A model generated the notes under the pieces. It saw only the letters and a program-made list of their open reading frames with translations, searched no databases and was not told where the DNA came from. A program made the position numbers and the translations under genes. DNA of 64,000 nucleotides, taken from the NCBI GenBank assembly GCA_050084515.1, contig CM114271.1:34906001-34970000 (forward strand), in the 5' to 3' direction. Shown here piece after piece: positions 2,183 to 49,439 of the stretch. Source of the DNA: Blasia pusilla (lineage: Eukaryota). Position 1 is the stretch's first letter, and each line of letters starts with the position of its first letter.

Positions 2183-2701
2183 TATCACGTCTTTTAGGAT
2201 AGATCATTGAGATCTAGTAGAGGCCTTTGTGAGTAGTGGAGAACAGGCTCAATAGGTTGAAGATGACATGTTGAGGCCTCACGAAACCTGAGAGAGCAGT
2301 TTTCCCCTTCGTTTCGGCTCATTTGGAGCCATATTGAGGAGCTTACTATTTTAGGTAAGTACCATTTTGAGTATATGATCAACTTTATATTTTTGGTAAG
2401 TGGACCTTGACCTCCTACATCAGGTCAAGAACCAAAGAGGTGACTTGGGAGCATAGGTTACCATGGAGAGAGCTTGGGAGAGGGGAGGGGTATACCTCAA
2501 GGAGAGAGAGCTTGAGAGCTCATTCTGTCTTTGTTGAACCTCTTGGCATTAGGCGGCGGAGCTATGGTCTTGATTGCCTTGTGTGTGTAACCCAAGCCTC
2601 TCATTAGGAGAGTGGGTTTGGTTTGACATTGAGAGAGACATGTGAGAGTGCACACATGTGAGCACTATGGTGTTGTGAGAGAGATTGGATCTTATTTTAC
2701 A
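2183..2701 (+). repeat. Terminal repeat A alone (5' end of element), followed by a putative self-priming site and leader
   Basis: Runs tatcacgtcttttaggatag ... gatcttattttaca and aligns with the A part of 12451-12968 and of the solo copy at 41494-42129. It is not followed by B. Confidence 0.85.
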
Positions 2702-5700
2702 AAGAGAGAATGAGTGAGTGAGAGAGCTTCATGGGGAGCTCCCTGGTTGCTCGATGTTTGGTGCAGTTGGGGGACTGTCTTCCCCGCTTCATGGCTCATG
2801 GGAGTGCTCAACGGAGCAAGAGCCGTGCGAGTTTGCTGTTTTGCTTTGCTGATTTTTTGTACGGGAGAGTGGCACGCGGTAGCACTACCCAATTTTCGAT
2901 AGGAATTGAGTATGGGGGAGGATTGCTCCATGTCGGTGCTCTTGTTTCTACCAATCCATCAAATCTTTCTTTGTGAAAGTTGGGAAAAGTGGGTGTCTAG
3001 ATTAATCCACTACATTGGATGGTAGTGTTGTGAATAAAAACCCTTACTTAAAAATGCCAGAAGATTCAAAGCCATACACACCCGCCATCCACTTTGCTAG
3101 TTCTTGTCATTCAAGCAAGCTAGATCCTGTGGACGCCCACCTAACTTCAACAGTCACTCTTCATATTCACACAAGCTTCCACATTGTTTGTTCTAGATTT
3201 TATGAGATTGATATTGTTGGGTTGAATTTACCTTACATTTTGCGTTAGGGTGTCTTTGATAATCCAGAAGTGATATTTTTTTGGTGATCTTGTATTTTCC
3301 TCATCAAGCTTTCATGTTGATTTGTAGACTTTCTACATGCGCACCATTCTCAGCTTCTTGGTCTACTTATGACAACTCGATTAGGTTTTGTTTCTACCGT
3401 ACGTACTCTATTTCATGATATTCTCGATTACTTTTCTATTTTTTTTCAATATTGTGCACTTACATTTGCTTCCCCCATATCATGTATTTTGCATCTAAAA
3501 CTAGGTTAGTGACAAATAAAAGAACAACAAGTAATTTCCCATAACACCATTTATTGTTGTATGTTATAGAATTATGGATCTCTTTATAGAATGATTGAGT
3601 ATATCTACAAGCCTACCATCACCATGGTTATGTGGACTTCGCTCTTTGCATTTCTTTATCCACACTTCCATCTTCAAGTTACTCACCCTCACTATTGATA
3701 CTAATTAGCATGGAATTCGGTTAGTCTGCCCTTCCTTGCAAACCAAAATGATTTTTAATAACTTAAAAAAATATATTTTTCATTTAAAAATGTAAATATA
3801 ATTTCAACTTGAAATTCTTAAATTTTAAAAGAGTAATAAAATTTCATTTAAAAATAATTTCATTCCTCAATGAAAATTCAAATAATATCCAACTCCCCTG
3901 AATAATTTCATCATTGCATAAAATTTCAAACAATACATACTATTCCCCTTCCACTTCTCTCACCAAAATAACATCAACTAACTAAATCATTAGTTAATTT
4001 TAATTAATAAAGTGATTTCCATTTTCCATTCAAATTAAAATTTCTTTCCCAAAATATCAATTTTGACTTAAAAAAACTATATACATATATTTTAAATAGT
4101 AATCAGATTTTTACTGCAACATTTAAATTACTTTTTTTATTTTCTTAAATTATATTAAAAGAGTAATAACATGATTCCACTCTTTTAAAGAATTCCACAC
4201 CATAATTAGAATTTAAATAATACCCCACTCCCCTTAATAATTTCACAATTCCATAAATTTAAAAATAAAAATTCACTAATAAATTTTAGTCCATCAAATA
4301 TCTCGTTTTTTCCGTTAAATTTTATTTCTTTTATCGTCAATTTGATTCAGAATTAAAAAGTAAGAGATCATTATTTATCTTTATTATTTCATTACTCATG
4401 TGTTTCTTCCATTCATTATTTCTTCACATCAAATACGGATGTACAATTTCAAATACCCATTTTAAATGTCTGATGTCCTCCGATGGGTCTCTTCGTTTCC
4501 GCCCGGCATCTCATGAGCGGGTCCCATCGACCCGCGCACCCTGCCCAGTTGCAACCGTAGGCCCGGTCGAAGAATGGCGTCGTTATTTTCCTCTTTTTCT
4601 TTGCCGGTTTAGGATGATAACCGGGAACGGGTAGAACCAGTAGCGCCTTGCTTTCTAGCGGCACGAATCCAGAAGTGACCCGGAACCTGAGTCCTCGGTG
4701 GCTTGGGAGAGCGGGCCGTGGACTCCGTTACAGCGGTACTGGTACATACAGTGCATGGATGGAAAGGTTACGTGCGTGCTAGGACAACGTTGGTGTTCAT
4801 TCACTCGAAGATTGCCGAACCGAATCTTGGTCACGCGAAGACCGACCTTCTTCCCGAGCGCGATTGTTTGCGAAGCGCGCGCAGATGATGGCGGCGAATC
4901 GTGCAGGACCATTTCGGTGGAGTGGCGATCCGGGTCGATCGGTCGGTGTGTCGATCGCCCGGGTGGAGTGGAGTGGCCGGTGGAAGTATGGAGGTTGCGA
5001 GCAGAGCGTCAGAAAGGCTGGCTTTCTTGAGCGAGCGTCATGGGGGCCGGTCAGTCGATTCAGACAACATGCCGAACGGAGGCGCCGGAGAGTGGTCGTT
5101 GAATACGTGTGTCATGGATGTTTCCGACTTGCGAAGAAGCGTTCAGGGCATGACTGTTCCACCCCTGCTTCCGCAATCTCATCTGTGATTTCCGCGAGCG
5201 GATTTGGGAGTGGTTGATGCATTCTTAACCACACGGTTCGTTTCGTTTAGGTGCTAGCGAGTCTCGCCTTTTAAGCACGAGCGCGAGTTCGTCCCACACC
5301 GCGCTTTGTTCTATGGGATGAATCGAGGAATCATATTTATATCGTTAGCATTTAGTGTGGAGTGAATTCCACGAGTACCGAGTTGGTCATAATCGATTTA
5401 ACGTACTGTGTGAATGTTGTAGTACCATGTGACCGGCATTCGCCATGGAAAGAGTGTCGAGCTTGAGAACAAGGAGAGTTATGGGGAGGTGCGTGTTTAA
5501 AGAAACGTGCATGCGCACTCGAACTTTCATGGAGTTCTAAGCATGCCATTGGAAGACAGCACCGACTACTTGGCTGTCACATGGGAGGCTGTGCTCTTCT
5601 CCCTGTATTACAAGGTTTCTCCTTGGTATGACCGACAGGCGAGGAAGACATTACGTTCTCCGTAGCATGATGCCCGGGTTCTTGACAGTGAAGCCCTTCC

Positions 5701-9130: not shown

Positions 9131-10415
<1,285 letters not shown>

Positions 10416-10619
10416 GTTGGTGATAAGGTCCCTCTAACTCAAGATATCCATCCATCCTTACCTACCATAACTTACATCTCTAGGAAGCTAAGAGCAAAAA
10501 GTTCAGATACTTATATGGCTTGATCGTTAGTCGCCTTCTTATCATCCATGTCACAAACAAAAGTATGAATCAGATTCTATGTCTATCCATTCTTTACTAT
10601 ATGTACATCTGAGGCATAT

Positions 10620-12278
10620 TCATTGTTCTTGAGAAAACTTACTGAAAGGTGGCGTCAGACATGCCATGTGCCACCCTCTCGAACATCCATCATAGACTAG
10701 CATAGTGGATGCAGCACGGGAAAAATCACACAACATACAACGCAAGTATGTAGAGACTATTGTTGAGCTTAGATAAAAAAATACCATCAATGTTAGGAAG
10801 GTGACATGACGCACAATGACATACAGGGTCCTTCCAAACCATACCATCCTTTCCCTCTAATAAGAGAACATCAAATGACAACACATCACACACTCTCAAG
10901 AAAAAATCCCCTACATTCACATCCAATGTCATAGGTGCCATTTATTGCAAGTAGATATTTTCTCCCTGATAAAACCTTTAGATCTTCGGTCGAAAATCAC
11001 CTCTCCAAATAATTGCATACTTCAAAGTATCCCGATGCTATGCAATCACCAATTGCAAGTTCTCAAACGCCATGGGCATAACGCTCCTAAAAAACTCAAC
11101 CCTATGAGAATATGCTCACATCTATACATCAGGGTCATCAAGATTCAACACCTCGCTAGTATCGCAACAAATAGCTATAGGTAAATTAGACTCTCGACCA
11201 TAAAGCAAAAAATACGGTGAGAAAAAAGCTAAGGGTACGATGTATGCTTGCTAAATCTATATCCCATCGCTAATCACAAAAATTGTAGGTCCCAATCTCC
11301 TAGGTGATCTCTTTGCAAGTCATACTTGCACAAATCTCTCTTCACCGTCAAAACAACTCTCTCAACTAGACTATCCGCCTCAAGATGATCTCGCGAAGTA
11401 GTGGGATAGTTTATCGACGCCCAATCACACAAGATCTAAAAACTCCCCAAAAAATTCCATACCCTGGTCTATCAACACCTTAGTTGGTCTGCCATAATGA
11501 CTCAACACTCAATCCAGGAAGATATATACTACTCCCTCACTCGCTTTGTCTGGCAATGCAGCCAACTCTATCCACTTTGAGAGGTGCTCGACCATCACCA
11601 ACACATAGAGACTATGATGCTAAGTCAAAGGTAAAGGTCCTACAAAATCCAGAATCCATCTATAGCCTAAATCCATGATCGATAGTGGATGGAACTATGG
11701 AGTAAGAGCATTGAATGAATTCCAGACTCGATCATGCACTATGTATCCAACAATAAATTGTTGAAAGTCAGTCTGCATGCCTCGACACCCATACTATATC
11801 TAGAACAAGTTGTACGTCTACTTCATTCCAAAGTGACCAAACTCCACATAGGCATGCTTCACCAAACATGCTCTCTGCGAAGGATGAGGCACTATGCGTA
11901 CTCTACCATCCTCCTAAACTCACAACATATGCATCCTCTTCCCACTGAAACCGTTTGGCTCGATGTAGCATCCAATCCCCCTCTCTAGCACCTACTATGC
12001 TCGTGATGCTACAAGTACGTAAGAGCGAAAAGAGTACTCCATCCTCCTGAATATCTCAACCACTTGTCATCTTCTCATCGGCCTCTAGATCTGAGGACTC
12101 TTTGTCGGTCCTCGCCATTCAAGTCCCAACACTCTCGCTCTACGTAGCCAACCATCCCAAACAGGTCGATGCGTGCTATCCCACACCATATCCTTATCAC
12201 TCTCTCCATACCAACGAGCACTAGTCACATCTCGTTGACTTGAGCATGGGTTACAGATGAACCCATTTGTATCCAGGT
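10620..12278 (-). pseudogene. Decayed Gypsy DDE integrase plus C-terminal PHD finger
   Basis: Minus strand across frameshifts: (N)LDTNGFICNP RNase H/IN linker, GHFGMK (HHCC), WILDFVGPLPLT, VLIDQGMEF, DSLVERVV, then LRCMLCDFSRAASTMLVYDGCSRGWHMACLTPP. Confidence 0.85.
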
Positions 12279-12323
12279 TGTCACGTCTTTTAGGATAGAT
12301 CGATGAGCTCTAGTAGAGCGCCT
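12279..12323 (+). repeat. First 45 bp of repeat A (left end of a younger nested copy)
   Basis: tgtcacgtcttttaggatagatcgatgagctctagtagagcgcct; left flank aggt (ACCT on the minus strand). Confidence 0.85.
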
Positions 12324-13053
12324 TGTCGTGCACATACACATCGCTACACAACATACATTGCTGTCACCAAACACACACAAAAACACGCACAATCCCATGC
12401 TAACTCATGGCATCCAAACAACGAGACAAGAAGTACCAAAATATCTCCAATAAAATAAGTTCAAATCTCTCTCACAACACTATAATTCTCACATGTGTAC
12501 ACTCTCACATGTTTCTCTCAATATCAAACCAAACCCACTCTCGTGATGAGAGGTTTGGGTTACACACACAAGGCAAGCAAGACCATAGCTCCTCAGCCTC
12601 ATGCCAAGAGGTTCAACAAAGAGAGAATGAGCTCTCAAGCTCTCTCTCCTTGAGGTATACCTCTCCTCTCCCCCAAGTTCTCTCCATGGTAACCTATGCT
12701 GCCAAGTCACCTCCTTGGCTCTTGACCTGATGTAGGAGGTCAAGGGTCACTTACCAAAAATATAACATCGATCGCATACTCAAAAGGATACTTACCTAAA
12801 ATAGTAAGTTCCTCAATATAGCTCCAAATGAGCCGAAACGAAGGGAAAACCTGCTCTCTCAAGTTTCTCGGGGCCTCAGCAGGTCATCCTCGATCTACTT
12901 AGTATGTCCACTGCTACTCACGAAGGGGCTCTACTAGATCTCACCGATCTATCCTAAGAGATGTGACAGTTGTCGTGCACCACGGGCAGAACCACACAAC
13001 ATACACCGCAAGTCTGTAGGAACTATTGCTAAGCTCAGATCAACTATATTGTC
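12324..13053 (-). mobile_element. Nested 3' end of a third copy: PHD fragment / deleted B1 / spacer / A2 / B2
   Basis: B 12324-12450, A 12451-12968, junction gtgaca-gt-tgtcgtgca 12963-12979. This is fused through a tgca microhomology to PHD-region sequence at 12980-13053. Confidence 0.85.
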
Positions 13054-13888
13054 AGAGTTCCGCGGGGAGTTTCAGGCCTTGCGTGATCAGACACTGATTG
13101 ACCACTACACTACTTCACGAGATCATCCTAAGGCGGATCGACTAGCGGAGCGGGTTGTGCAGACGGTGAAGAGATGACTACGCAAGTATGGCTTGCAGAG
13201 AGGTCACCTAGGAGATTGGGACCTCTAGTTGCCGTGGTTGGCGATGGGATACAGATTCACCAGGCACGCATCCTTAGCGTCTTTCTCACCATACTTGATT
13301 TTGTATGGCCGAGAGCCAGATTTACTTGCGGCTATTCGTTGAGATGTTGAACCTTGATGACCTTGATGTATGGATGCGAGCATGTTCTCAAAGGGCTGAA
13401 TTATTCCGGAGAGTAATGCCCATGACGTTTGAGAACGTGGCGATTGCGCAACATCGGGATATATTGAGGTATGCGACTATTCGGGGATGTGGTCATCGAC
13501 CTACTATCCGGAGGTTCCATCAAGGACACTATGCTTACATATAGCAGACGGCATCCACGACGTTGGATATGACTACCGGGCGTTCCATCTTGAGAGTGCG
13601 TGAGGTTTTACCATCAGGTGTTCTCTTATTGGAGGGACACGATGGTATGGTTGGAAAGACCATGTGCGTAACTATGCGCGGTGTCACCTTCCGAACATCG
13701 ACAATACAGTTTATCCGAGCTTAACAGTAATTCCTGCAGGCTTGCGATGTATGTTGTGTGGTTCTGCCCATGGTGCAGCCACTATGCTAGTCTGTGATGG
13801 ATGTTCGAGAGGATGGCATATGGCATGCTAGATGCCACCTCTCACTAGGATTCCTCAGGGAGGACGGATGTGTCCCAAATGTACATAG
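13054..13888 (+). pseudogene. Decayed Gypsy integrase C-terminal half plus PHD finger
   Basis: EFRGEF...HPKADRLAERVVQTVKR...FSPYLILYGREP, then CMLCGSAHGAATMLVCDGCSRGWHMAC*MPPLTRIPQGGRMCPKCT* (Cys4-His-Cys3). Confidence 0.9.
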
Positions 13889-14055
13889 AGTAGGTAGTTC
13901 TATATTCCGACTTGTGTATGTTACATGGATGACAAGAAGGCGACTAACGATGGGGCCACATGAGCATCCAACCTTCTTGCTCTTAGTGTCTGAGAGATGT
14001 ATGTCATGGTAGGTAAGGATAGATGGCTATCTGGAGTTAGAGGGATCTAACCATC

Positions 14056-14069
14056 AGGTAGGGGGGCGA
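14056..14069 (+). promoter_or_regulatory. Polypurine tract immediately 5' of repeat B
   Basis: aggtaggggggcga directly precedes ttggagatatttt. Equivalent degenerate tracts occur at ~10405 and ~1250 on the minus strand. Confidence 0.75.
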
Positions 14070-14197
14070 TTGGAGATATTTTGGTACTTCTTGTTTCGTT
14101 GTTTGGATGGCATGAGTTAGCATGGGATCGTGCCTGTTTGTGTATGTGTTCGGTGACAGCGATGTATGTTGTGTAAGCGATGTGTATGCGCATGATA
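14070..14197 (+). repeat. Terminal repeat B (B1)
   Basis: ttggagatattttggtac...gcgatgtgtatgcgcatgata is the reverse complement of 12324-12450; followed by AACT. Confidence 0.9.
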
Positions 14198-14720
14198 AAC
14201 TGTAGAGTTGGATCTAAAGAAGGTGGAAGCTAGGATTCAAAACATACCACACTTCCTAGTTTTTTACTTTGTCCGAGGCGATAATGATCCCATCTCAGTA
14301 CATGGATGTTAGTTGTGCGCAGGCATGACGGGAAATGGAAGAATTGAGTAGTTGATCCGGTGTTGAGTGTGTTGTTGGCATGGGGCCGACTACTGCTATA
14401 TAAGATGCCCCATAGTTTGCAATAGTTGCATTGGGAGGTACGTCCGCCAAGTTTTTTTGGCTGGTCGCTACGCTATGTGAGTGTGGAAATGGTATCACTG
14501 CCTCATGTTCCAAGGTGGTTGTAGAGGAGGTGGTGGACTTGCCTTTCGAGCCTATGCTCGGGTTGTCCATCTCAGATTCACGGCAAGTTGCAACTTCTAA
14601 GATTGCGGTGATGCCCACTAGACTCGTGAGAGAGCATGTCATGGTGTCTCCACAAGTTGTTTTGTTGGATAATTGGGGAGAGATCTTCCAATTGGTAAGC
14701 CTAGGAGGTAGGGAGTGTTA

Positions 14721-15095
14721 ATCTTGTTGGATTCAAGAACGCAACCCTTGATGTTGGGGAAAGCTGGGTTTACAAGATTGGGCTTGACAAGGGCCAATGC
14801 GGAGTATTGCCCATTCATGATACCAAAATCCTTACGTGGAGCGGGCACGATACAGTTTATAACCTGACATGAGGTCATGGTGAGGATTTGACCAGACATC
14901 CTTCAGATGAGTCCGTGGTGAGAGCCAAGGCGATAATGATCGATGTCGAGTCTTATGATGTTTTGGTTGGAGGAGCAGTGTTGTACTTAGTAGGATTAGA
15001 TTTGGATTACAGGAAGGAGTCACCATCCTACGGACCAAGATGGAATTCGGGTGATGGGCAACTTAGCTCGTTACTCATTCGGTTTATGAGTGGAG
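14721..15095 (+). pseudogene. Retrotransposon aspartic protease relic
   Basis: ILLDSRTQPLMLGK (DSG mutated to DSR) ... SYDVLVGGAVLYLVGLDLDY. Confidence 0.75.
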
Positions 15096-15439
15096 TGATT
15101 GAGCAACGATAATGAGAGATGGCGACTCATGCAGCATTTAGCAGCGCGATTATGTGGCCTAAGGATTTGATTGAGAGTCGTGTCCACAGAGAGTAGACAC
15201 CCGTGACCAACACCCCTATGGAGAGGAGTGCTATCGTGGGAACATCATTCTATGAAGGAGAGGTGCCTTTGTAGGGCTTGAGTGGGACGCTTTGACGCTT
15301 GGTGGAAGAGCATGTGCAGATGGTGCATGTGGAGTGAGATGTTTGCCTTAGAGCGTGACGGGTTAGAGGAACCTGAGGTAGTTGGGAGTGCTACCATGTC
15401 TCCCTTGGACACCTTATCCATTGTATGGCGCATCCTAGA

Positions 15440-16030
15440 TGAGGGTATTCAAGTGTTGGATCTCTTTGAAGGGATCAACACTAGGTTGGCTAAAGTTTTG
15501 CAAGTAGGAATCCGTGTGCAATAGTACTTGTACATGAAGCTTGATGAGGTTGTAAGGCACTTCTTACTTCAACATGTGGTGAAGTTGGGCCTCCATTTTC
15601 GTGACTTTGTTATCTGCGTCGGACGTGTAGGGATACTAGAGTTCCTTACTAAGGGAAATTTCTTTGGTGGGGGCACATGAATCGAGTCGGGTGGGGATTC
15701 TTGATTTGGTCATTATAGGTTGGCCATATTAGGGCCAATCAAGTATTGGAAGAGCTAGTGGTTTAGTGCACAAATTGTCTGGGTTATTTTGGAAGAGGAT
15801 CTTGCGATACTCGTAGGCAGTTAAAAACATCATTCCTGATCTCTAGCTTACATTCTGGATGCGTACCAATCTTAGGTGATTTGCGGTCATGAGTGGTGAA
15901 GAGTGCACATTCCGTTCGTACATGAGTCGACCATGCAATATTTTAGGATGCGGCAAGCGTGGGTTCACAAGCACATCGCTGGCGTCTATAGTGGACCAAC
16001 TTGGTGCTACATGAGGTGTTGTGCAACGTT
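15440..16030 (+). pseudogene. DNMT3-like C5 cytosine DNA methyltransferase domain embedded in Gypsy pol
   Basis: Ordered motifs: I IQVLDLFEGI (~15447-15476); II YLYMKLD; IV DLVIIGWPY*GQS (15703-15741, from GWPCQG); GL...SGLFW; VI AYILD/..PILGD (~15845-15880, frameshifted ENV); VIII DAASVGSQAHRWRL*WTNL (15947-16003; compare DNMT3A DAKEVSAAHRARYFWGNL). Motif X is not recognisable. Confidence 0.85.
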
Positions 16031-16444
16031 GGATGAGGTTACAACATGTCGATCACGGTTGTTATACTTGTGAGCCCCATGCCTACCAATACGGCCCATA
16101 AAATGGTTGGGGGCGAGACCCGAGAAGATCGACATATCATGGATGAGCAGGAGAGACACCCTTGGACTTCTTGGAATGCTTTGCAGGTATGCTGGGAGAT
16201 AGTAGCCATAACATCGAGGATGGCATATGATCCTCCAGACCGAGGACATGAGAGTTCTAAGTTAGCTATAGGAGAGCAATGGAGTGTTATTGTTCGAGAT
16301 GGGGTTGCACCATCGCAAGCACGGATACTCATGCCAAAGAGTCCTACAATAGTCACGATGGAGACTTGGGAGCCAAATATAGACGTTGAGTTGTCTAGAG
16401 GAGATCAGCGTCGAATACCTTAGTTCCTTAGGAGTCATAGGAGT

Positions 16445-18028
16445 TTTTTTACATTCAATATGCATGATTTTGGTACATTGAAGGGTCGGAGGATTTGCAT
16501 TGAGTTGTCTAACAATACATTGATCTTCCGATGACCCAAAAAAAAGATTGAATACGGGCAAAGTCCGTGTCCGCAGACTTGACATGTCCATGTCCGTGGA
16601 CTTTTGTCCGTCCTTAAGATGAACATATCTATGTGGGTGCGGGTACCGACAGCCCGCACCTCAACCCGCCCCACCCACAATGTAGCCCCGGGTTTGAGCC
16701 GCCCACTAGGCCACATCTAGTCTAAGAAGCGTCACCAGCTTTGTAGTCGGCATTGGCCTGCGTAGGGCGGGCTATGGTTTGTGGTTTGCATAGGGTCAGT
16801 TCAGGCCAAGGCGGGCTTAGGGCGCGCCAATTTTTGCCCGCCTCCCTTAATTTGAGCGTACACCAGTTCCCATCCGGGCCATGGGGGTACCAAAAAGATC
16901 TAGGCGGGGGATCTATTTGGCATGTCTGTTTCTGTGCAACCATGCCTACAAGTACATTGATATGGAGAGGGTCCTCAAAGCAAGAGCCATGACTTTTTTG
17001 GAGCAACACTAGTGGAGATGTCGCATGAAGAATATGCATCTGCCACTATTATGCCCACAAAGAATGATGTTCATCGCAAGTGGACAGATACCATTAACTA
17101 TTTCAAATTGGAAGACAAGAAGAATACGATATTTTGGGGCATCAATCCTCACAAGAAGGACTATTTTGTTCAGGTGGCAATTCTTACCATTTTCGTTAAG
17201 GACCGCACGTGGAGAGATCGAGAGGGTAATGGATAAGATCTTGGCAGGTCTGGATTTTGCTAGGTGTTATATTGATGACATCGTAGTCTTCAGCGCAACA
17301 ATTGAGGAGATTTGGACATTTGGAGGAGATATTTCGACAATTACAATTACATGGGTTAAAGCTACATCCATGTAAGTGCAAATTCTTTTATGACCAGATT
17401 GAGTACTTGGCTCATAGGATATACCCATGTGGCCTTGGTGTTCAATAATGAAGGTAGAGGCTATCTCACGCATTCCACGCCTTATAGATATGAGTCAAGT
17501 TTGCGCATTTATGAGACTAGCGCGCGAACTTTTATAGACGGTATATAAAGGGTTTTAGTTTGATTGCGAAGCCACCAACCTTGTTGGCCAAGGTGGATCA
17601 CAAGTGGCACTGGGACAATGAGCAAGAGAAAACATTCCAACTGCTCAAGGATAGGTTGACGTCCATGCTGATGTTAAGGGGACCTATCGAGTGTGTCTCT
17701 TTGAGTCGCATACAGATTTGAGTATGTTGTAACAGTGCTCACCCAACATAATGTTGAGGGTAGAGAATTCATGATTACTTATACTAATCGCTCGAACAAT
17801 GCTGTAAAGGCGAAATATTGCTCGTTTGGGACGAGTGCTTGATTGTAGTATGGATCATCGCACATTTTAGGTATTATTTATTCACAAACCCTTTTACCAT
17901 TATTATTGATATCAACCACTTAAATGGTTGATGGAATTTGACTAGCTTAGAGGGAATCTTGCGTGGTTGGCTCTATCGTTGTAGGAGCATGATTTTCAAA
18001 TGGTGAATCGAATGGGGATGCTGAACCT
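16445..18028 (+). pseudogene. Gypsy reverse transcriptase and RNase H relic, interrupted at ~16538-16944
   Basis: FR*P|YKYIDMER, LVEMSHEEYASATIMPTK, MDKILAGLDFARCYIDDIVVFS (YIDD 17268-17279), HTD and YTNRSNN RNase H motifs; ends MLN at 18028. Confidence 0.9.
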
Positions 18029-18669
18029 TGTCGTGTGCATACACATCGTTACACAACATACATCGTTGTCACCGAACACACACAAACACGCATGGTCTCA
18101 TGCTAAGTCATGCCATCCAAACAACGAGACAAAAAATACCAAAATACTTCCAATGAAATAAGATCCAATCTCTCTCACAACACCATAGTTCTCACATGTG
18201 TGCACTCTCACATATCTTTCTCAATGACAAACCAAACTCATTCTCCTAATGAGGGGCTTGAGTTACATTCATAAGGCAAGGGACCATAGCTCCGCTATTC
18301 CGTGTTAAGAGGTTCAACTAAAAGAGAATGAGCACTTAAGCTCTCTCCTTGAGATATACCCCTCCCCTCCTCCCAGACTCTCTTCATGATAACTCATGCT
18401 CCCAAGTCACTTCCTTAGCTCTTAACATGACGTAGGAGGTCAAAGGATCACTTACTAAAAATAGAAAATTGACCATATACTCAAAATGGTATTCATATAA
18501 AATAATAAATTTCTCAATATGGCTACATATGAGCCGAAACGAAAGGGAAACCTGCTCTCTCAGGTTTCCCAGGGCCTCAATAGGTCATCTTCAACCTCCC
18601 GGATCTATCCTCCACTAATCACGAAGGCGAGCTCTACTAGAGCTCATTACTATCCTAAAAGACGTGACA
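18029..18669 (-). repeat. A+B terminal repeat unit (641 bp)
   Basis: tgtcgtgtgc...gacgtgaca; flanks acct (left) and agtt (right). Confidence 0.92.
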
Positions 18670-20270
18670 AGTTGCTTCACGAATAACATATAACTTGCTC
18701 CATCCAAACAGGATCCTTCACGTCCTTGAATGCTTCATATGATGTTGATGCTATTAATATGACATCGCGTATCCTCAATGCTATCGCGATAATCTATTGT
18801 TATAAAAACTCTATCTGAGCAACCATCCCAACCTCACACCCCAGATCTCCCTCAACTCCTTTACGTGGTAGATCTCTACTTCCACCACAGACATACCCAC
18901 GAGAAAATCCAACCCCACATCCCCTTGACACACAAGCTCTAGGCCAACCGGGACCTCTAGTGACCTCTCTAGCCCTCGATCTGGATGTAAACTCAGGGTG
19001 CAAGCTAAAACAACCAGTGCAAGTATAACCATACCGCTAGCAATTGTTACATTGAAATACCCCTAATGCATGCCCATCCACTCTTCCATGCTAGGACACG
19101 CGTCCACTTTCTTGACAATGGGCTCCATCACATGCCAAAAAAATTAACTATTGGCATCTTTTGCTGACCCGCCTATGATGACATGGGTTGTGGTGGCACA
19201 TGCTTGCGATAACCTCCCTGAGCTCGTGATACCATATTCCTTTTTTGCAATACACATTGTTACACTTGTGATGTAGGAAATTGTGATTACTTTCATGTGT
19301 AACTCATGTCTACTACTCTCTCCTCGACCACATTGCGTTCACTGCACTCTGCCATCTCAAAGATATTTCTCAACATAGGTGAGGTGTGCATTAATAATAC
19401 CATATCCCTCACCTACATGTATCATTCTAATATCCCAAACCATGATTGAACAATCTAGGCCTATTTCATCCCTTAAATGACTAATCAAACAACACATGTG
19501 AGTAAATTCCTCCCACAAACTCTCCCTTATGTGCCTATGGAAGTTATGTGCACCGTATCTTCTTTGTCCATAACCCCTAGTTATTCCTCTGCAACTCTAT
19601 GAAGAACTCAACCATAGGGTTGAACTTAGGACGAATCCGCCTGGATGACACAAGTGCCCTAATCCAACTTATCCCTCATTGACTCTCACTAGTCGCAAAG
19701 GAAATAACCTTCCCTAGCTGCTCTTCATCTTGAAATGGCTCAGTCCATGACACATATTATGTGTTATAGTAGAGTCTCCATGCATCAATCTTGATCGCGT
19801 ATCTACGGGAGAACTAATGATAATCGCCCATGAACTTCCCCTCTAGGTGTTGGAACATCCCGTAACATGTTGTAAAAGGATTGAACTTCGAAATCTCTAA
19901 TCCTTTACGAAAAAAACACCAACTCATAAACTATGAAGTCATACAACTCTATAGTATCCATTGCTCCCGAAAACCTACTCGATCCCCGACCCAATTTTCC
20001 ATCTAGTTCACCCAAATGGTGGGATTTCACCAACACCCTCACCCTTGTTTAAGAATGAAATAGAAGGACGTCAAGACGGTCCTTCACGTGGAAACTCTCG
20101 AAGCCTCGTACCATTTTACGTATAACCTCTAAGACTACTCTAAAGCACACCACCTCATCTCTCAAAGTCTCAAAAGAACATCGTGATGACCCTTATGCCC
20201 CCTCACATGATCATTCTCAATCTCACGATTAATTACTCAATCACTCAAACTAAACATATAACACTTACTC
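18670..20270 (-). mobile_element. Very decayed gag/protease relic of another LTR retrotransposon
   Basis: Minus-strand LEDTRCHI-like protease motif near 18770 and a Cys knuckle-like remnant near 19250. It appears to continue across the inversion into 14202-14270. Confidence 0.4.
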
Positions 20271-20863
20271 TCCATTACCTCCTTTACACTACTGCTGTAA
20301 TAGCTTATCCGATATAGTAAATTTTTTGATTTAATTCAACTTAATCGATGCAAAAAGAAAACCTACTTGTCATATTGCCCAAGGCCTTAATAAACATCAT
20401 CAACCTCTTGAAATTCTCCTCCAATATCTTCAAAAATATTCTCGCCTATATCTTAACAATAAAGATTATCAACTCGCAAAAGTTTAGTAACTTGGACTCC
20501 ACTAATAATGACTTTTAAAGAGTATTTTGGTTCACACCCATTATCTCAATTTTCAGATCAAACTAGGCCATTAACATAAAAATACCCTAAAACATGTGAC
20601 ACCTTGCATCCCACCTTCTAAGTACTAGTAGAAAGCGGTCTATAAATATCCGCTTATATAACATAAGTGGAGGAGGAAATCCCTGGAAGGCTCATTAAAT
20701 CATGTCATCCCCAATATCAATTCTTTTCTTGCACTATCCACAAAACATCAAGCTCACAAGACATGGGTACAACAACAATGTATATTTGGCGATACCATAA
20801 GAACAAAATCCAAAAGGTGAAAGCACCCTTCTCCAAAGTTCATTGTTTGCGTATTTAATATAA

Positions 20864-21052
20864 AACCCGAGGCTAACAGAAGGCCTCACCAAATGGTTGA
20901 AATTCTCATTGGTTCTACTCTAGTCCAACCCAAGGCTAACAAGAGGCCTCACCAAATGGTTGAAATTCTCATAGGTTCTACTCTAGTCCAACCCGAGGCT
21001 AACAGAAGGCTTAACCAAATGGTTGAAATTCTCATTGGTTCTACTCTAGTCC
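20864..21052. repeat. Tandem repeat, 63 bp x3
   Basis: aacccgaggctaacagaaggcctcaccaaatggttgaaattctcattggttctactctagtcc repeated three times with few substitutions. Confidence 0.95.
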
Positions 21053-22205
21053 ACTGATACTAAACATCCTTCAGCTTTACAACACAAACCCTGATTCTAC
21101 TCCTGGATAGGAAGACATAATGATGAAAGATTATCAATCTAATGGAGAGGTTTGGCATTTGTTTCCAAGGTTGCTGAAAATCTCTCCTGGCAGGACAACA
21201 GGTGAAGCTGCTGGGAGCAAATGCGAAACACATGAGGGCATTCTGTGTATAGAAGTAAGGAAAAACCTGGAGACATTAAAAATCAGAAGATGGAAGAAAC
21301 CCTTGACCACAGCTGGGATTATTGATTTTAGGGTTGATCTCAAGAAGAAAAGACTGAACTGAGAATGAGTTTTTGTCCAAACCAGAAAAAAGAGGTCCCT
21401 GAAAGTAGAGTACTAGAAAGTGTATGGACAGGAAGGTAAGAGGAGAAAAGTGGAGTAAAGATCTACAATACAACGAGACATTTGCGTAAAACCAGCAGCT
21501 CACTTCTGTAATTCTCTACTGACCAACAATTGATAAATCAATCCCATACTGGAAACCATCTGCAACAGGCATTTGCATGCAATCATGCACTTATTCCTAC
21601 ATACGTATACAAGAAGCACAGTGATTAGGAACTCACAGAGAACATCCTTCAGTTACATCTCGCCGACACAGGGAAAAACCTCCGAAGGAATAATTATAGT
21701 TATACCTGCTACAATGACACTCTGGGCTGCTTCAGCAGCTACAAATCATCTCAAATAATGATCAGCTAATATACATCATCGCTTTTGTACTGTTTAGTAG
21801 GCTTTGAACTACTGGAAAAAAAATTCACTGCACAACTTCAGCTCCATGATCACTGAGCTCAATCTACAAAGGGATTGGTGATCAGAAGATCAAGTAACCT
21901 TTATGCTGAGCAAAAAATCACTATTATACAATTGAGACAAGAAGCTCAAGAATGTCCATCTCTGCCAACGAAGCCATAGCATAGGTTACCAGGTTACCTC
22001 CATTCAGACAGAAAGATGACTTCCACATAAATTCTGCACACATCTTGTCACCCGTGACCAAAGCCTACACCTATCACCTGGAGCGTATTCCCATATGCCA
22101 TATCCTTTCATGTAAATGGCGTCCCTTTTCACATTCTTAACTTGTGGATGACTACCTTTAGAAAATGCACCTTTTGACGATTAACTTTTTTTCTGGATGA
22201 ATTAT

Positions 22206-25200
22206 CTATGAGCGCAGTACCACTCCACCAGTGATCCTCCAGCCGCCTTCTCCATGCTGTAGTTCATATCTGGTTGTGTATGTACTTCGATATGAATCTT
22301 TATGTTCTGGATTCTTGTTGTCAAATAGACGAGCTGCCTCTTGCAAAGTTGCTTCAACTATTGCTCTTCTTCCGTCATCACTCACAGTAACACTATCAAC
22401 ATTCAATCCTACAAGTCTATACTCCCAAAACCAGCCATTTCTTGCCACTTCATTCACGCGTTCAGTCCAGCTTTCCAGCATCTTCCCCTCCAGCACCTGA
22501 GCCCAATCCAAAGAAAGTGTCACCACTGAAGTCAGGCTTTGTGGGTAACAATAATGCATTGCAAGCCAAACAAGACTAACCTTGACCGTGAGGTGGACAA
22601 GGAAAGAGCAAGTAATCGATCACAATGAATTTACCTCGGACAGATGGCCAACAGAATGGGTGGCACCGAGAGCTTGTGCTTTAGCAGTCTGCCATTTCCG
22701 GACTATCTGCTCAGCCAGTCTTGCATCCATTTTGGCCAATTCCACTGCCTGCCGTCCCTCCAACAACCCTGAAAGTATCAATCACTGTCACTATTTTGGC
22801 TTGAAGTGGTACAAATCAAATTATGTCAGGCCAGCACAGTTCAGTATTGCTAGGGCATAATCTCCCAAACAAGCCACAATTACAACGTGAACGCTCAACG
22901 TATTGTTTTCTATCAGACCTGATGAGGCTGGTGCTGTAGTAGCAATGGGTGCGCTCTCAACAACATTGTTAGCACTAGGTCGTAAAGGCAGGAACCGCAA
23001 CCCAGTCATAACCAGGGCCCCAAAAACTATCCCAGAGCATGCAATCTGCAGAAGGGTCAAACCACCCTGACTAGCTGTTTGGACAGATAAATTACTGTGT
23101 CCACTTGCAAAATTTCCACTCTCCCCGATATCACCCCAAGCGTGCCCTGGAGGTCTAGTTGAGAGAATTGAAGCAGATGGGCCAAATCCCAAAGGAGATG
23201 ATGTCTCAGGATCCTGAAATTCAGTGTCTGCACTCTGGTGAGATCCATATTGCTCAAAATCCTTGTCCGGTGGATCTGTGGCATACTCCACCTGGTTGGC
23301 CATACCACTTGCTGTACTTTCTATGACACCAGCTCGTTTACCAAGTGGGAACACTTTCTGCAGTGTTGACATTGCAGATGCTTTGACATTGTCTATTGCT
23401 GCACCAATCCTGGAAAGAGCAGTAGAAGATCCCCCTGCTGTTGTTTCCCACTGTTCTAAAATACTTATCACCTGAGGATCATCATAGTAATCACCCAGCC
23501 TGACTTGCAAACTTTCTGTATTCCGGAAGGTGGGGAATACCACCTCTGCCAGCCACCTTTCCAAAAGCTTGCATAAACCAGGAAGCAAGTCTCCATCTTC
23601 ACTTCCCTCCGAATGTGAATACACAAATTCAATTACAGCAGGATCCCTGTACTCTTCAGTGCCATCTTGCAACCCTAAACACGCCATTGACTGGTCAACT
23701 TCGCCCATCAGAAGCCAACACATAGCTCTCTCAAGACTGTGGTCCAGTGGTGCACCAAGTTCACCATCTGACTCCTGTGAGGCTTGCAACTGCCAAAACA
23801 GCTCATCTGCCTTCACAACAAAAACTGGCTTGTTGGCAATGAAGCCTTCCGCTACATGAGCCAGAGCAACTCCATACACTTCAAAGCTTTCTGCTGGGAC
23901 ATTATCTGGTGTTGAGTCCCACAAAGCAACCTGAAAGATTTCAATATGAGTATTTCTTACCTTACTATAATGACCATCTTGATACCTCAGAAACTAGCAT
24001 ATGTATAATTATAGATAGCACATGTGGCAGGTATTGAACTAACTACTAGAACTCATGAGCTTGCAGTTTCTACCAATTGATCACCACTACACTTGACCCG
24101 CATATAGACCATCTGCACATTGAAGCCCAAGCACCGAGTAGTAATCTCCAAGTCAAACTTTAGTTTTCCCCTCATGTCTACCAAGGACATGCAAGGCCAC
24201 AGACCTATAAACGAAGTAAAACTGTACCTGCTCTGCTGCTGTCATGGAAGAAAATGCATCTTTGATGAACTGTTCCCGTGTGAAACCTAGAATAGGTGCG
24301 GCTGCACCTCCCTCACCTACAGCCCACAAGATGCTTCGCAGACCTTGCAGGCCTTCTTCTCTTTGTGAGGCATGTTCTTTGTCTAAAGGCAACGTGAGCA
24401 GTTCCAATACACACCGTGGTGTTAATTCCTCCAAGGTCTGCTCAATCTGTTCCTGCAACCCTAGGGCCAGACTGCTTCCTCCTTCTTCCTGGAAAAATAA
24501 AAATAAACACCTTTTATCATCCAGCAATCAAAACTACATATTCGGTTTCAGATCCTTACCAGCATGAGAAACATAAAGCAAACAGATCAATACAACTCTG
24601 GAAAAAACAGAACTTTCACGGAGTTCACGACACAAGACCTAGATCCAGGATTCTAGACTTGATACATTAAGTCAAGAGACTTAATGCAATTAAGACACTA
24701 AAAGTATATCCTATAGCCTCGTTATTTGTACTCTTAAAGCTTTCCTTGACTTCTTTTGTGCTGGCAGCATGAGATACATGGTTCAAAGGTTTCCAAGGGA
24801 TTGATAGTCCATTAATTGGAAAACCATGGATACAAAGAGACATCTGAAGATGTAGCTCGTTTTATTCTTTAAAAAATGCCTGCAGCAACTGCGATCGATG
24901 ATCAGGGCATCTTGCTGTTCCTGTTAAGACTTTCACAGGAAACTCAGAATGAGCGTGGAACGAGAGAGAACAGGGTTTGTGGAGTTCAGAATCAGGGGAG
25001 TTCAGCCATGGGGCAGAGAGGATTCTATCATAATCTGTTTCAAGGTCTGGTCAAATAGATATTTCTAGGATTGATTTTGGGCTAGGTAATAAATTATTTG
25101 ACGTAGTCTGCCACTTTCACAGATAACCTTCCTTACTCCAGAATTAGTGAGTCGACAAGATCAAATTTCAACCACGAATTGGGATACCTGGCTAAGCCCC

Positions 25201-28899: not shown

Positions 28900-31385
28900 T
28901 CTCATCTCTAAAAGGTGTTCATAAAAGCTTATGCTCGTAGAATTCACACACAACTTCAAGAATGATGCAAACTTGTGGGTAGAGTAAGAGGTTATGCACA
29001 AGGAAGCCCGACTTATGGTACGGATGCACAAGAAGGAAGTCAACCAATCAAGCTACGTATCCATCGATGAAAACTGCATTGAGAATTAGAAGAAAATTGG
29101 ACGAAAGTGCAAAAACTGGGCAAGTCAAGGGAAGAAATGACGTGAAGGCCCTTAAGGGAAAAGACAATTGGATGGTGACCACTACTAAACAAATTCGACA
29201 TGTGTTAAGAGGACAATTACATGGAATCAAGCACGAAACCCCATCGGAATATCTCTTGAAGAGAAAAAGTTTGAGGAAGGGATGGAGGATTTTATCGAGA
29301 TCCAACAAGACAAGATGGATGATGAGGTTGAGTCGGGCTACCCATACAGCGATTGGTACTTCTTGGCTGGGGTGGGAGCAGAAATTTGTGAACCACAAAT
29401 CAAATGGTTTGATTGGGCTTGTGAAAGAGATGTGAAGTATGGCGATGCTATTATGGCTCTTTCTCTAGACTCTTCAAGCCAGTTTGGCTGGCAAAGGTCA
29501 TTCCATAGAGATGGCCAATGGGAGTCATTGTGAATCTCTTCAAGAAGGGCAAACAAAAAGACTGTAGAAATGTAAAGGGGGATCACATTCCTGAGTGTAG
29601 TTAGGAAACACCTATGTTGTTTACTTAACAATGGGATCTCCATATACCTAGAGTAGAATTCGGTCATCAAGGAAGGCCAAAATTGGTTTTCCACAATTCA
29701 AAGGATGCAAGGATCATGTCTTCACACTCATTTACAATGTCCAAGGAAAAAGAGGGGAGGCCTGCCTACTTTTTCAAGATCCCGGCAAGCGACATCGTAT
29801 GCCTTAAAAACTTGCCTTCAAGCTTATGAAAGGTAGGGCTATTGAGGAAAATGAGGAGGATGGTTGAGAAAATGTATCATAACACAATGAGTAGTGTTAT
29901 GGTGAATGGCCAGCAAAGTGGACCATTTGACATGAGGCAGGGAGTGGTCCCAAGGATGCAGGCTCTCCCCACCCTCTTCAATATTTTTGTCAATTCCCTT
30001 AGGGAGGAAATGGATGATAGTGGACTAGGCATATGGGTGGACAAAATCTTTATTGCTGCCTTCATGTTTGCTGATTACTTAGGTAAACTAGAGGAAATGG
30101 GAGAGAAACTCCTAGAGATGATCTCCCTGACCAAAATCTGTTGTGACATGTGGGCATGGAGACAAGTGTTTAAAGTGTGGTGTGATGATATTCAATAGCA
30201 AGGAGGACGACCAACACGAGCACTGGTATTGGGTTGAACAGGAGATCCCCCGAGTGCCCACATACACCTATCTAGGCATTCAATTCTCGAAAGAGTCCAT
30301 GTGGGATGACCAGATTGAGAAGACTAGTGAGAAAGGTCACAAGAAGGTGAGCGCACTGTCAAATTTCCTACACTGCCCGGACATCACATCACAAGTCCGA
30401 CACTCTGTCACTCTACATACTGTTCATCCCTCAATGGAATATGGCACCACAGTCTGGGATGCAAACACCAAACAAAGGGTCGACTTAAAACTGTGCAGGC
30501 TGAAAGTGTTTCGGGGTGGGATGTTGGCTTCATCATGCACGTCCAGAGTTAGTGTGAGATCAGAACTTCGAGTGGAATCCCTGGGGGATAGACGTGACAT
30601 TGCCCAGTTGAAATGGCAGGGGAAGCTGGAGGCAATTGATTCCCATTGCTATCCTGAAGTGTTGAAGGGAAAAAATTGGATCCAAAGGAGGCCAGTAAAG
30701 TAGGAGATTGTGTAAGCAACCAAACTCCCTGCAGGGCCTGACCTGTAGGAGCAAGATGAGAAACCATTTGTGGAAACCATAACCAAAGCAGCACGGAGGA
30801 AGCCATGAAAATGTCTGAGCTCTCACTTGACTGTACATCCCGAACGAGGAGAACTGAAGAGTTATTTGCGGGGCACCCCTTCCTTGGGAACTCGGCTTAA
30901 GTTCAAGTTCAGAACAGGGGGTATCTCCTTGAACCACAAGAAAAGCCGGATGGCAACACTGTTAAACTCCTGCACCTTGTGTGAGGATGGGGATGAAACC
31001 TCAAGTCACTACTTGGTCTCCTGGACAAAATTCGTAGAACACAGAGCAACAGCACATGCTGATATTGCTAAACTGGTGACACCAGAACTGTTCAGCACAT
31101 TTGGCAGCCTATATTCACTGCCCAAACCTGCTGCACTGGTAATTAATTTGTTTTGGGTAAAGTAGATAGTGTTGTAAAGAGCTTCCTGGTTGACACTTGG
31201 AAGCTCCACACCAACTTTTTGTCTGGTCAGCACTCACTGTATGAGGGTGTCTCCCTCCTCTCATATGGTACCTTCTTCACTTCTTCCTCTCTACACCTAT
31301 CCCAGTCTCCAGCACCGTCCAACCTGTGCGCAGGGTCTATGGTCGGAAGGCTACCACAGGCACAATTTAATGAGTACAGTCCCTA
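28900..31385 (+). mobile_element. Decayed non-LTR retrotransposon (LINE) ORF2: RT plus C-terminal CCHC and 3' end
   Basis: GITFLSVVRK, RQGVVPRMQALPTLFNIF, FMFADYL, YTYLGIQF, CTLCEDGDETSSHYLVS, with frameshifts and stops. Confidence 0.85.
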
Positions 31386-32260
31386 AAGCGCTGTGTCATT
31401 CTGCGTCCCATTCGTCCATCACTGGAATGTGACCCTGTATTGTGGGATGCAAACACCAAACAAATAGACAGGCTTGAAGCTGTGCAGCTGAAAGCCTTTC
31501 AGGGTTTGATGTCGGCTTCATCTTGAGTGACCAAATTTGATGTGAGATCAGAACTTGGATAGCAACCCCTGCAGGATAGAGGTGACATGGCCAAGTTGAT
31601 GTGGTGGAGGCAGCTGAAGGCAACCAATTCCCATCGCTATCCTAATGTGTCGGTGGGGACCATTTTGACCTAGAGGAGCCCAATAGAGCAGACAGAATCT
31701 TGCATGAAAAAGGTTCAAGAGACCTTGCAAGCGACCAAGCTCCCTACAGGGCCTGTGGGAGCAAGAGGAGAAACCATTTGTGGATAGCATAAACCAAGCA
31801 GATGGAGGATACTCTAAAGCAAAACAACATTGAGGAAGCAATGAAATTGTCTAAACTCTGTATAGCCTGAACAAGCAGAGCTGAATATTACTTGTAGGGA
31901 ACCCCTTGCTTGGGAACCTGGTTGAAGTTCAAGTTCAGGCCGGGGGCGACTCCCTTGGACCACAAAAGAAAATAGGAGGGAAATACAACTGAAATCATGC
32001 GCCTCGTGTGATGATGGAGATGAGACTTCTAGTCACTACCTGGTCTCCTGTGCGAAATCCACAACACAGAGCAACAGCATATGCTGATATTGCTAAGCTG
32101 GTAATGCCAGAACTATTGAAAAAATTCAGCAGCCCAGAGTCACAGCCCAAAGCTGCTGCACTGGTGAGTAACATGTATTGGGGATCCAAAATCATAGGAT
32201 CCAAAGCTGCTGCACTGCTAACGAGTATTGGGATCCAAAATCATGTGATCATGGGAAAGT
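31386..32260 (+). mobile_element. Second, 5'-truncated copy of the same LINE
   Basis: Re-aligns to 30400-31160 (tgggatgcaaacaccaaacaaa, aagttcaagttcag, gctgatattgctaa). Confidence 0.8.
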
Positions 32261-37829: not shown

Positions 37830-38120
37830 TGGGTATTGGGGATCCAATTATGAAGTAAGATAAATCGTGTAGTAAAGAGCGACTCTATGTATGTACCACT
37901 CACACCACATGAGAGAGACTCCCTCCTCTCATGTGGTGCCTTCTTCACTTCTTCCTCTCTTTACACCTAATCCAATTTACGTCGCCGTAAAACCATCTTT
38001 GGTTGCAAGGCTTTTATAATAAGCACTACAACTCAAGGAGATCATCTCTCTATCCCAATCTCTACCATCTTGCAGTTAAACTATGCGGTCTACCGTCACT
38101 AGGCACTACTTACCAAGTAC
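37830..38120 (+). mobile_element. LINE 3'-end fragment
   Basis: Matches 31150-31380 (ccttcttcacttcttcctctct...). Related fragments lie at 49440-49855, 50150-50350 and ~50500-50640. Confidence 0.6.
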
Positions 38121-41493: not shown

Positions 41494-42129
41494 TGTCGTG
41501 CGCATACACATCGCTATACAATATACATCGCTGTCACCGATACACACACACACAATCCCATGCTAACTCATGGCATCCATACACAGAGGCGAGAAGTACC
41601 AAAATATCTCCAATAAAGTAAGATCCAATCTCTCTCTACACCATCTCACACCATAGCTCTCAAAGGTGTGCACTCTCTCTCTCATGTCAAACCAAACTCA
41701 CTCTCCTAATGAGAGGTTTGGGTTACACTCACAAGGCAAGGGACCATAGCTCCGCCGCCTTATGCCAAGAGGTTTAACAAAGAGAGAATGAGCTCTCAAG
41801 CTCTCTCTCCTTGAGGTATACCCCTCCCCTCTCCCAAGCTCTCTCCATGGTAACCTATTCTCCCAAGTCACCTCCTTGGCTCTTGACCTGATGTAGGAGG
41901 TTAAGGGCCACTTAACAAAAATAGAAAGTCGATCATATACTCAAAATGGTACTTACCTAAAATAGTAAGTTTCTCAATATGGCTCCAAATGAGCCGAAAC
42001 GAAGGGGAAACCTACTCTCTCAGGTTTCTTGGGGCCTCAGTAGGTCATCCTTGACCTACTGAGCCTGTCCTCCACTACTCACAAAGGCGCTCTACTACAT
42101 CTCACCGATCTATCCTAAAAGACGTGATA
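41494..42129 (-). repeat. Solo A+B terminal repeat with 4-bp TSD GAGT, inserted in the chromovirus pol
   Basis: gagt|tgtcgtgcgc...gacgtgata|gagt. Removing the insert and one GAGT restores KALIRVKEILSQEPLLKL in frame. Confidence 0.95.
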
Positions 42130-48736: not shown

Positions 48737-49181
48737 TGTCACGTCTTTTAGGATAGATCGGTAAGATCTAGTAGAGCGCCTTTGCGAGAAGTGGAGGACA
48801 GGCTCAAGAGGTCAAAGATGACCTATTGAAGCCCCGGGAAATATGAGAGAACAGGTTTCTCCTTCGTTTCGGCTCATTTGGAGCCATATTGAGGAACTTA
48901 CTATTTTAGGTAAGTACCATTTTGAGTATATGGTCAAATTTCTATTTTTGGAAGTGACCCTTGACCTCCTACATCAAGTCAAGAGCCAAGGAGATGACTT
49001 GGGAGCATAGGTTACCATGGAGAGAGCTTGGGAGAGGGGAGGGATATACCTCAAGGAGAGAGAGCTTGAGCTTTATTGTCTCGTTGTTTGGATGCCATGA
49101 GTTAGCATGGGATCATGCGTGTTTGTGTGTGTGCTCGGTGATAACGATGTATGTTGTGTAGCGATGTGTATGCGCACGACA
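48737..49181 (+). repeat. A+B terminal repeat unit with internal deletion
   Basis: tgtcacgtctttt...tgcgcacgaca; ~200 bp spanning the A/B join is missing at ~49071; flanks gaga/cata do not match. Confidence 0.9.
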
Positions 49182-49439
49182 CATACTAGTTCCCTAACAA
49201 ATACACATGTGGTCCCCTCATAAGACCAACTAACCCTATAGGTCTTAGTGGAACCATACATGGCTGGAAAGGTCAACCTCTCCAAGGTTGCCACTCCTCA
49301 TAAAGGGAAGGGTGACGTACACTCTTAGGTCACCTCCTAAGAGCAAGTCACATATGACCTCTCAAAATAGGGAAGTACAAGACTCCTCTAAGGCCTCGAT
49401 ACTATCTCGCCCTACGCCTCATCCACCATGACAACAACT

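Follow-up and report, generated by a model that had tools for sequence, protein, structure and literature searches.

Two split target-site duplications in nested Gypsy-DNMT3 elements of Blasia pusilla suggest integration at a site inside the long terminal repeat

The window considered here is a whole stretch of 64,000 nucleotides from Blasia pusilla (assembly GCA_050084515.1, contig CM114271.1, positions 34,906,001 to 34,970,000 of the forward strand; coordinates below count from its first letter). It probably holds a dead Gypsy-type retrotransposon in minus-strand orientation, invaded at an ACCT sequence by a single younger copy of the same family that points the opposite way. The plan of the family is A1-gag-PR-DNMT3-RT-RH-IN-PHD-B1-NN-A2-B2, where A is a 517-bp repeat, B is a 128-bp repeat, NN is a two-base spacer, and PR, RT, RH, and IN are the protease, reverse transcriptase, RNase H, and integrase. 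The outer copy begins with a decayed A1 remnant (20258..20601, minus strand), which starts with TGTCAC at 20601 and contains an insertion of ~120 bp; the rest of A1 and the 5' untranslated region (UTR) are deleted. A broken gag region follows (18674..20257, minus strand), which matches the gag of natural copies at 64-66% and includes a tblastn match to the Marchantia protein P0040 (20006-19212). The next segment lies inverted on the plus strand (14202..18024) and carries the protease region, a DNMT3-like domain (about 15430-16250, with motifs I and IV damaged), RT, and RNase H, all broken; an unrelated 407-bp insert in the RT region (16538-16944) has no second copy within the window. The minus strand then resumes with the RNase H tail, integrase, PHD finger (10769-10602), and 3' UTR (10406..12274, broken) and ends in the terminal repeats (9131..10405), namely B1 (10405-10278), an AC spacer, A2 (from 10275), and B2 (9265-9131). 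A (TG)n microsatellite expansion of ~590 bp occupies 9270-9858 inside this A2. The outer copy is 64-78% like the main family, and its own target-site duplication (TSD) is not recognisable (AAGG versus AATA).

The nested copy is distributed over both strands. On the plus strand are the first 45 bp of its A1 (12279..12323), the C-terminal half of its integrase with the PHD finger and 3' UTR (13054..14068), and B1 (14069..14197), with a polypurine tract (PPT) just upstream of B1 at about 14059-14068. On the minus strand are A2 (18155..18669), which has a precise start from which the spacer is absent, and B2 (18029..18154), the two meeting at a seam (18155/18154). The nested A1 is interrupted by a third family copy (12324..13053, minus strand) composed of a PHD fragment, the last 10 nt of B, an AC spacer (12970-12969), A (12968-12452), and B (12451-12324). 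The original prediction, made from the letters of this DNA, held that one pol gene had been interrupted by a same-family insertion and later partly inverted; the insertion stands, and the third copy had been overlooked. Assignment of 12324-13053 to the nested copy was ruled out, as none of that copy's rare variants are present in it.

The sequence ACCT occurs at two ends of the nested copy. At 18025-18028 on the plus strand, the decayed RT-RNase H reading terminates in ACCT, directly before the reversed end of repeat B (TGTCGTG from 18029). At 12278-12275 on the minus strand, ACCT comes directly after the reversed start of repeat A (12279) and is followed by the RNase H tail, integrase, and PHD finger. 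These positions and the adjoining B and A termini, as originally described, were correct on re-reading of the sequence. A genome search (390 Mb, 26 contigs) with 17600-18028 as the query gave 3054 first-look candidates, and 20 of the 40 listed RNase H matches were fetched, one of which is the window itself, leaving 19 non-self loci. It had been proposed to look for relatives in which the two halves belong to different families or in which sequence is missing at the join. All 19 loci run through the site, with a single-point switch from window 18027/18004 (plus) to 12280/12273 (minus), and their printed junctions across the ACCT site lack no bases; an origin of the halves from different families is thus ruled out. 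Moreover, a Marchantia polymorpha protein crosses the same break (residues 1072-1111 correspond to 17910-18029 on the plus strand and residues 1110-1139 to 12279-12190 on the minus strand). Both pol halves keep the reading register of uninterrupted relatives. The N..ADGLSR sequence, described as a linker, required correction: the break sits in a C-terminal N-x-x-A-D-x-L-S-R motif, which we take to be the end of RNase H.

At the site itself, relatives mostly read ACCA, and ACCT is found in none of the 19 loci and in none of the 17 scoreable members of an overlapping set of 20. Since the A-to-T change is present on both halves and ACCT occurs in no relative, the change is private to this copy. 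Comparison of the sequences confirms ACCT as a split 4-bp TSD. A 5-bp duplication was ruled out, as the fifth base mismatches both at ACCT and in full copies.

Read in the same way, AACT is a second split TSD, absent from the original prediction and located at both breakpoints of the inversion. AACT stands at 18673-18670 on the minus strand, directly before the start of A, and at 14198-14201 on the plus strand, directly after the end of B. The outer gag lies on the minus strand (20257-18674), and in relatives it runs on into the window from 14198 onward on the plus strand. The inverted segment (14198-18669) is bounded by this 4-bp duplication at precise element ends, and the 2-bp spacer that usually joins B1 to A2 is absent at the breakpoint. 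Relatives cross both breakpoints, which supports the sequence of events first proposed, i.e., one pol, a same-family insertion, and a later partial inversion; the second duplication suggests that the inversion was made by the integrase. At this site, relatives usually read AGCC and AACT is seen in 1 of 13 scoreable, which makes AACT weaker shared-allele evidence than ACCT. Reads from four runs derive mostly from other family copies and no listed piece or contig bridges the breakpoints, which therefore rest on the assembly.

The composition of the family is seen in its other copies. Pfam domains in the open reading frames (ORFs) of natural copies comprise DNA_methylase (in 3 of 3 ORFs from the DNMT region), RVT_1, RT_RNaseH, Integrase_H2C2, rve, and PHD, and the order RVT_1, RT_RNaseH, Integrase_H2C2, rve is the Gypsy RT-RH-IN order with a DDE integrase. 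The rve and PHD domains are both present in one natural copy (L036); the PHD finger (PF00628, E 1e-9) sits at the integrase's C-terminal end, and no chromodomain was found at that position. No tyrosine recombinase was found in 13 natural-copy ORFs or in 6 homologous proteins. Among 20 ten-kb stretches around RNase H matches, gag-PR-DNMT-RT-RH-IN-B occurs in order in 13, and 13 have the B-A-B 3' end. The proposed association of the methyltransferase with the PHD integrase and the B-A-B ends is thus real, and it does not depend on the window junction alone. Every copy examined is broken, and methyltransferase motifs I, IV, VI, and VIII are all intact in just one of 20 copies (L048). The methyltransferase has 23 longer homologs, including named proteins of Calypogeia, Marchantia, Sphagnum, and Closterium (27-35% identity for Closterium), with no Klebsormidium-named protein among them; the best solved-structure matches of the top homolog (P0001) are DNMT3A/B. 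Phage records yielded only three weak methylase matches, and viral contigs seven weak matches. Two proteins, P0020 and P0019, have a related DNMT (P0020 shares 40% identity with P0001) in the order RT-RH-DNMT-IN-PHD, and P0020 has an unannotated C-terminal extension. In metagenome contigs of other hosts, 61 loci were found, five of them with paired 3' repeats, which have the same plan and a different A sequence. The anatomy recurs in contigs L234, L217, L242, and L254; in particular, L234 reads A-coding-B-GC-A-B, with the TSD AAGG and the same PPT.

Integrated ends have the form TGT...ACA. Among 34 full A1...B2 copies attempted, 13 could be scored for a duplication, which is 4 bp long in 12 (8 exact, 4 with one mismatch) and non-matching in 1. 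A G-rich PPT stands directly before B in 44 of 94 B starts; 35 starts follow an A end and 15 are unsorted. No tRNA-type primer-binding site (PBS) was found after A1; the bases there match the complement of a segment within A that lies about 30 nt past a TATA-like box, with the self-primer at about A position 337. Of 29 copies, 27 could be scored, and their putative self-priming duplex, a measure of sequence potential only, spans 8-16 bp with a median of 14. In L116, the duplex is 15 bp long, was equalled in 0 of 2000 shuffles, and appears in the two predicted folds (z -2.4). L234, which comes from another host, has a duplex of 17 bp whose sequence differs (likewise 0 of 2000 shuffles), and that of L230 is weaker (11 bp, 5 of 2000 shuffles). 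The copies do not have two complete direct long terminal repeats (LTRs) with an adjacent PPT; their order is A-coding-B-NN-A-B, with the PPT before B1, 130 bp upstream of A2. Given a PPT before B1 and a self-priming PBS after A1, the LTR defined by reverse transcription would be B-NN-A. The TSD-flanked ends would then lie inside this LTR, at GACA-NN-TGTC.

The GACA-NN-TGTC junction has 461 exact matches in the genome, and a control has 0. In 60 junctions, the spacers are AC (22), GT (14), GC (9), AT (8), and others (7), purine-pyrimidine in 53; GC and AT spacers make the junction a perfect palindrome. The arrangement UTR-B-NN-A-B accounts for 48 of the 60. The A2/B2 seam falls precisely where the predicted cDNA ends would meet, and it differs among copies that are otherwise alike. 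Of 84 copies, 49 have an exact seam, 22 have one extra base (mostly the first PBS base), 1 has two PBS bases, 1 has filler plus the PPT tract, 2 have a shorter seam, and 9 could not be parsed. Retained primer and PPT bases are a signature of retroviral 2-LTR junctions. Shorter forms also occur. Three of 29 B1 ends have no A, four A-coding-B copies have a matching or near-matching TSD of their own, and among solo A-B copies, drawn from 40 sampled A starts, 6 could be scored, five with a TSD of their own and one fold-back.

Several further copies bear on the repeats. In L234 (1679-2016), the end of A repeats the start of A in inverted form and then adds five bases, resembling the vestige of a canonical TG...CA LTR end; this is a possible clue to the origin of the internal site. 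L189 is a tandem 3'UTR-B-AT-A-5'UTR arrangement in which two elements have one B-NN-A unit in common. In L123 with L328, the flanking bases, AAGG on the 5' side and CCTT on the 3' side, are each other's reverse complement, with B1 and the junction deleted. Internal inversions are frequent among fetched family copies (L038, L049, L099, L102). Stranded RNA reads of run X14, aligned to 11500-20800 of the window at low depth and mostly 90-95% identity, derive from other family copies and from the sense strand; 11 of them cross the B/A junction.

The likely explanation, taken as a whole and built on the anatomy of the copies, is that end-joined cDNA of the family is integrated through an internal site and that double use of such sites produced the inversion in the window. 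The element would be reverse-transcribed as a self-priming LTR element with the LTR B-NN-A, giving the cDNA [B-NN-A]-coding-[B-NN-A]. The DDE integrase would ignore the cDNA ends and act on the near-palindromic GACA-NN-TGTC inside the LTR, where the two spacer bases would be discarded and a 4-bp TSD would be made. The true cDNA ends would be joined by host end-joining or an RT jump, producing the A2/B2 seam, and opening of the end-joined cDNA at the upstream internal site would yield A-coding-B-NN-A/B, the slash marking the seam. The A-coding-B forms could arise from one-LTR or doubly cut cDNA or from B1/B2 recombination. In the window, the upstream site of the nested copy would have been used for insertion into ACCT and the downstream site for insertion into AACT, 3.8 kb away. 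Such double use, at once or later in trans, would have inverted 14198-18669 (4.5 kb) and split both TSDs. By extrapolation from PMC5890265, the DNMT3-like domain most likely methylates new cDNA; the PHD finger is most likely a chromatin reader.

The rival that survives best, though we judge it unlikely, is a classical route of the PAT/Ngaro type, in which strand transfers or an RT jump via the internal B/A junction regenerate linear ends that undergo ordinary 3' processing. This route would involve no end-joined circle and no internal cutting, and the inversion in the window would be a rare accident. It readily explains why the mirror form is missing (0 of 60 junctions), the repeat order is that of split-direct-repeat elements (PMC6681497), and the 2-bp spacer could be a trimmed dinucleotide. 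However, the PPT and the self-priming PBS put the RT ends at the start of B and the end of A rather than at the TSD-flanked ends. Moreover, the seam is variable among alike copies and can retain PBS or PPT bases, and the route leaves the exact loss of the spacer and the 4-bp duplication at 14198/18673 unaccounted for.

Whether the nested ends come from one copy or two bears on the next rival. An A>C variant is common to the A ends at 12279 and 18669 and occurs in 2 of 154 sampled A starts (21 of the sample could not be parsed by pattern, none of them with A>C by eye) and, genome-wide, in 3 of 703 exact-match A starts. A C>G variant is common to the B repeats at 14069-14197 and 18154-18029; it occurs in 22 of 2913 B matches, two of which are the window pair, and no other pair lies at the B1-B2 spacing. 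Together, the two variants favour the derivation of all four nested ends from one inserted copy. A copy 24 kb away (L272) has the B variant and lacks the A variant; at 88.7%, it is no closer than others, which rules out a local sibling copy as the source of the shared variants.

According to this second rival, the family inserted here twice, independently and in opposing directions, at ACCT as a solo A-B and at AACT as an A-coding-B form; ectopic recombination between the A repeats of the two then inverted the segment between them and swapped the TSDs. It gives the same map without integrase action on a chromosomal junction, both required forms exist in the family, and nested insertion is common there, a third copy having inserted at this very locus. 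Nevertheless, it needs two insertions and three recombinations, and both insertions would have to carry variants found in about 0.4% and 0.8% of repeats, with no subfamily that carries them; the nearby copy with the B variant offers no such source. This account is therefore rather improbable, somewhat more so than the classical route. Chance double-strand breaks with end-joining, or an artefact of the assembly on which the unbridged breakpoints rest, are very improbable, as both breakpoints fall at element termini, the spacer is exactly lost, and the duplicated 4 bp match the TSD length of the family.

Several observations weigh against internal-site integration followed by double use. The mirror form A/B-NN-A-coding-B, absent from the 60 junctions, is also absent from 29 A1 starts, which counts against the proposal because a symmetric two-LTR circle should also open at the downstream site. 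This asymmetry might be due to integrase being loaded at the point where RT ends, or to the methyltransferase of the element masking one of the sites; both ideas are guesses. Of the 6 solo A-B copies that could be scored, none is a second clean instance of double use, and the odd ends of L037 and L070/L099 come with no matching duplication. The A-coding-B and solo A-B forms may arise by ordinary recombination between direct repeats, and AACT differs from the usual AGCC by deamination-type changes only. Unrelated copies often have a single rare variant in common: of 15 B doubletons, 11 linked different loci, so neither the A>C nor the C>G variant is decisive alone. The nested A1 and B1 are physically discontinuous, because the third copy and a deletion separate them. 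Finally, all steps of the mechanism are deduced from decayed genomic copies.

Related elements have been described. KnitGypsy-Dnmt3 of Klebsormidium nitens is reported to combine Gypsy domains, DNMT3, and DIRS-like repeats, and SymbioDIRS-Dnmt3 to have the repeat plan A-coding-B-A-B (PMC5890265, in the part available). KnitGypsy-Dnmt3 thus resembles the Blasia family in its Gypsy domain set, DNMT3-like domain, and DIRS-like split repeats, a likeness of published description rather than of sequence; that text, as far as available, mentions no TSD, PPT, primer site, junction, or mechanism. In contrast, the Blasia family occupies a land-plant genome with thousands of decayed repeats and has liverwort and Sphagnum relatives. 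Gypsy-DNMT3 is cited as a streptophyte element (PMC12344493; bioRxiv 2026.05.21.726589), and Gypsy elements of Chlamydomonas are known to have PHD fingers in pol (bioRxiv 2022.06.16.496473); the main text of the REXdb paper mentions neither PHD nor methyltransferase.

PAT, Ngaro, VIPER, TATE, and SymbioDIRS-Dnmt3 are split-direct-repeat elements with a tyrosine recombinase; the A1-coding-B1-A2-B2 order and solo A2-B2 derivatives (SIRE) are common to them and the Blasia family (PMC6681497). What sets the Blasia family apart is its DDE integrase (Pfam rve, H2C2), together with 4-bp TSDs and a PPT. With Tf1/sushi and the plant element Tcn1, it shares a lack of a tRNA primer site, an intra-LTR complement to the position after the 5' LTR, and a PPT (bioRxiv 2022.12.06.519325; PMC6317226); it differs from these chromoviruses in that a PHD finger replaces the chromodomain, a DNMT3-like domain is present, and the integration ends lie within the LTR as defined by reverse transcription. 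The integrases of foamy virus and HIV-1 can cut LTR-LTR junctions that are palindromic (PMC1180852, PMC1905944), and junctions of two abutted inverted repeats (IR-IR) of IS30 generate inversions (PMC9333248). As in those systems, a DDE enzyme would act on two abutted ends with a short spacer, and reuse can invert DNA. However, retroviral and IS30 junctions are formed by end joining, whereas the Blasia junction is part of the LTR sequence itself and the cDNA ends, once joined, would form a separate, non-reactive seam. Literature searches, outside subscription journals, Repbase reports, figures, and bioRxiv supplements, found no account of bryophyte members or of their TSD, priming, or internal integration site.

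The family is a land-plant member of the known Gypsy-DNMT3 kind, to which the proposed reading of its repeats as a permuted LTR with an internal site and the proposed double-use inversion, both of which the anatomy supports well, would be the new additions. The wider proposal, to which we lean only slightly, is that Gypsy-DNMT3 elements from algae to bryophytes integrate via an insertion sequence-like junction inside the LTR, that their split repeats are circularly permuted LTRs, and that their junctions are able to rearrange neighbouring DNA. A split TSD by itself is ordinary transposon archaeology. If correct, the proposal would account mechanistically for the split direct repeats of an element that uses an integrase and would offer a natural system for the debate on productive integrase use of junctions in joined or circular cDNA; every full copy would carry a latent rearrangement site able to invert or delete neighbouring DNA. 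Moreover, bryophyte genomes contain many transposon-borne DNMT3-like genes, several of them listed only as 'hypothetical proteins' in Marchantia, which could distort inventories of DNMTs and may play a part in methylation.

Further repeats and one gene are found elsewhere in the window. A solo A-B copy (41494-42129, minus strand) with an exact 4-bp TSD (ACTC) lies inside a chromodomain-bearing Gypsy element (39846-43978, plus strand) with a zinc knuckle, protease, RNase H, integrase, SH3, and chromo domains. At 2183-2960 (plus strand), an A1 that includes the self-priming site is followed by the first part of a 5' UTR, the remainder of that copy being gone. An A-B derivative at 48737-49181 (plus strand) has an internal deletion and no matching TSD, and an older, diverged family remnant (3' UTR, B, A) at 522-1530 contains an inverted duplication of A. 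A second dispersed repeat family is represented by several diverged copies (30403-32182, 37897-37995, 49434-50293). Exons of the plastid-division gene ARC6 (22206-24527, minus strand), a neighbour that fits a land-plant host, lie about 1.6 kb from the 5' end of the outer element, and a 63-bp triple tandem repeat (20864-21053) lies between the two.

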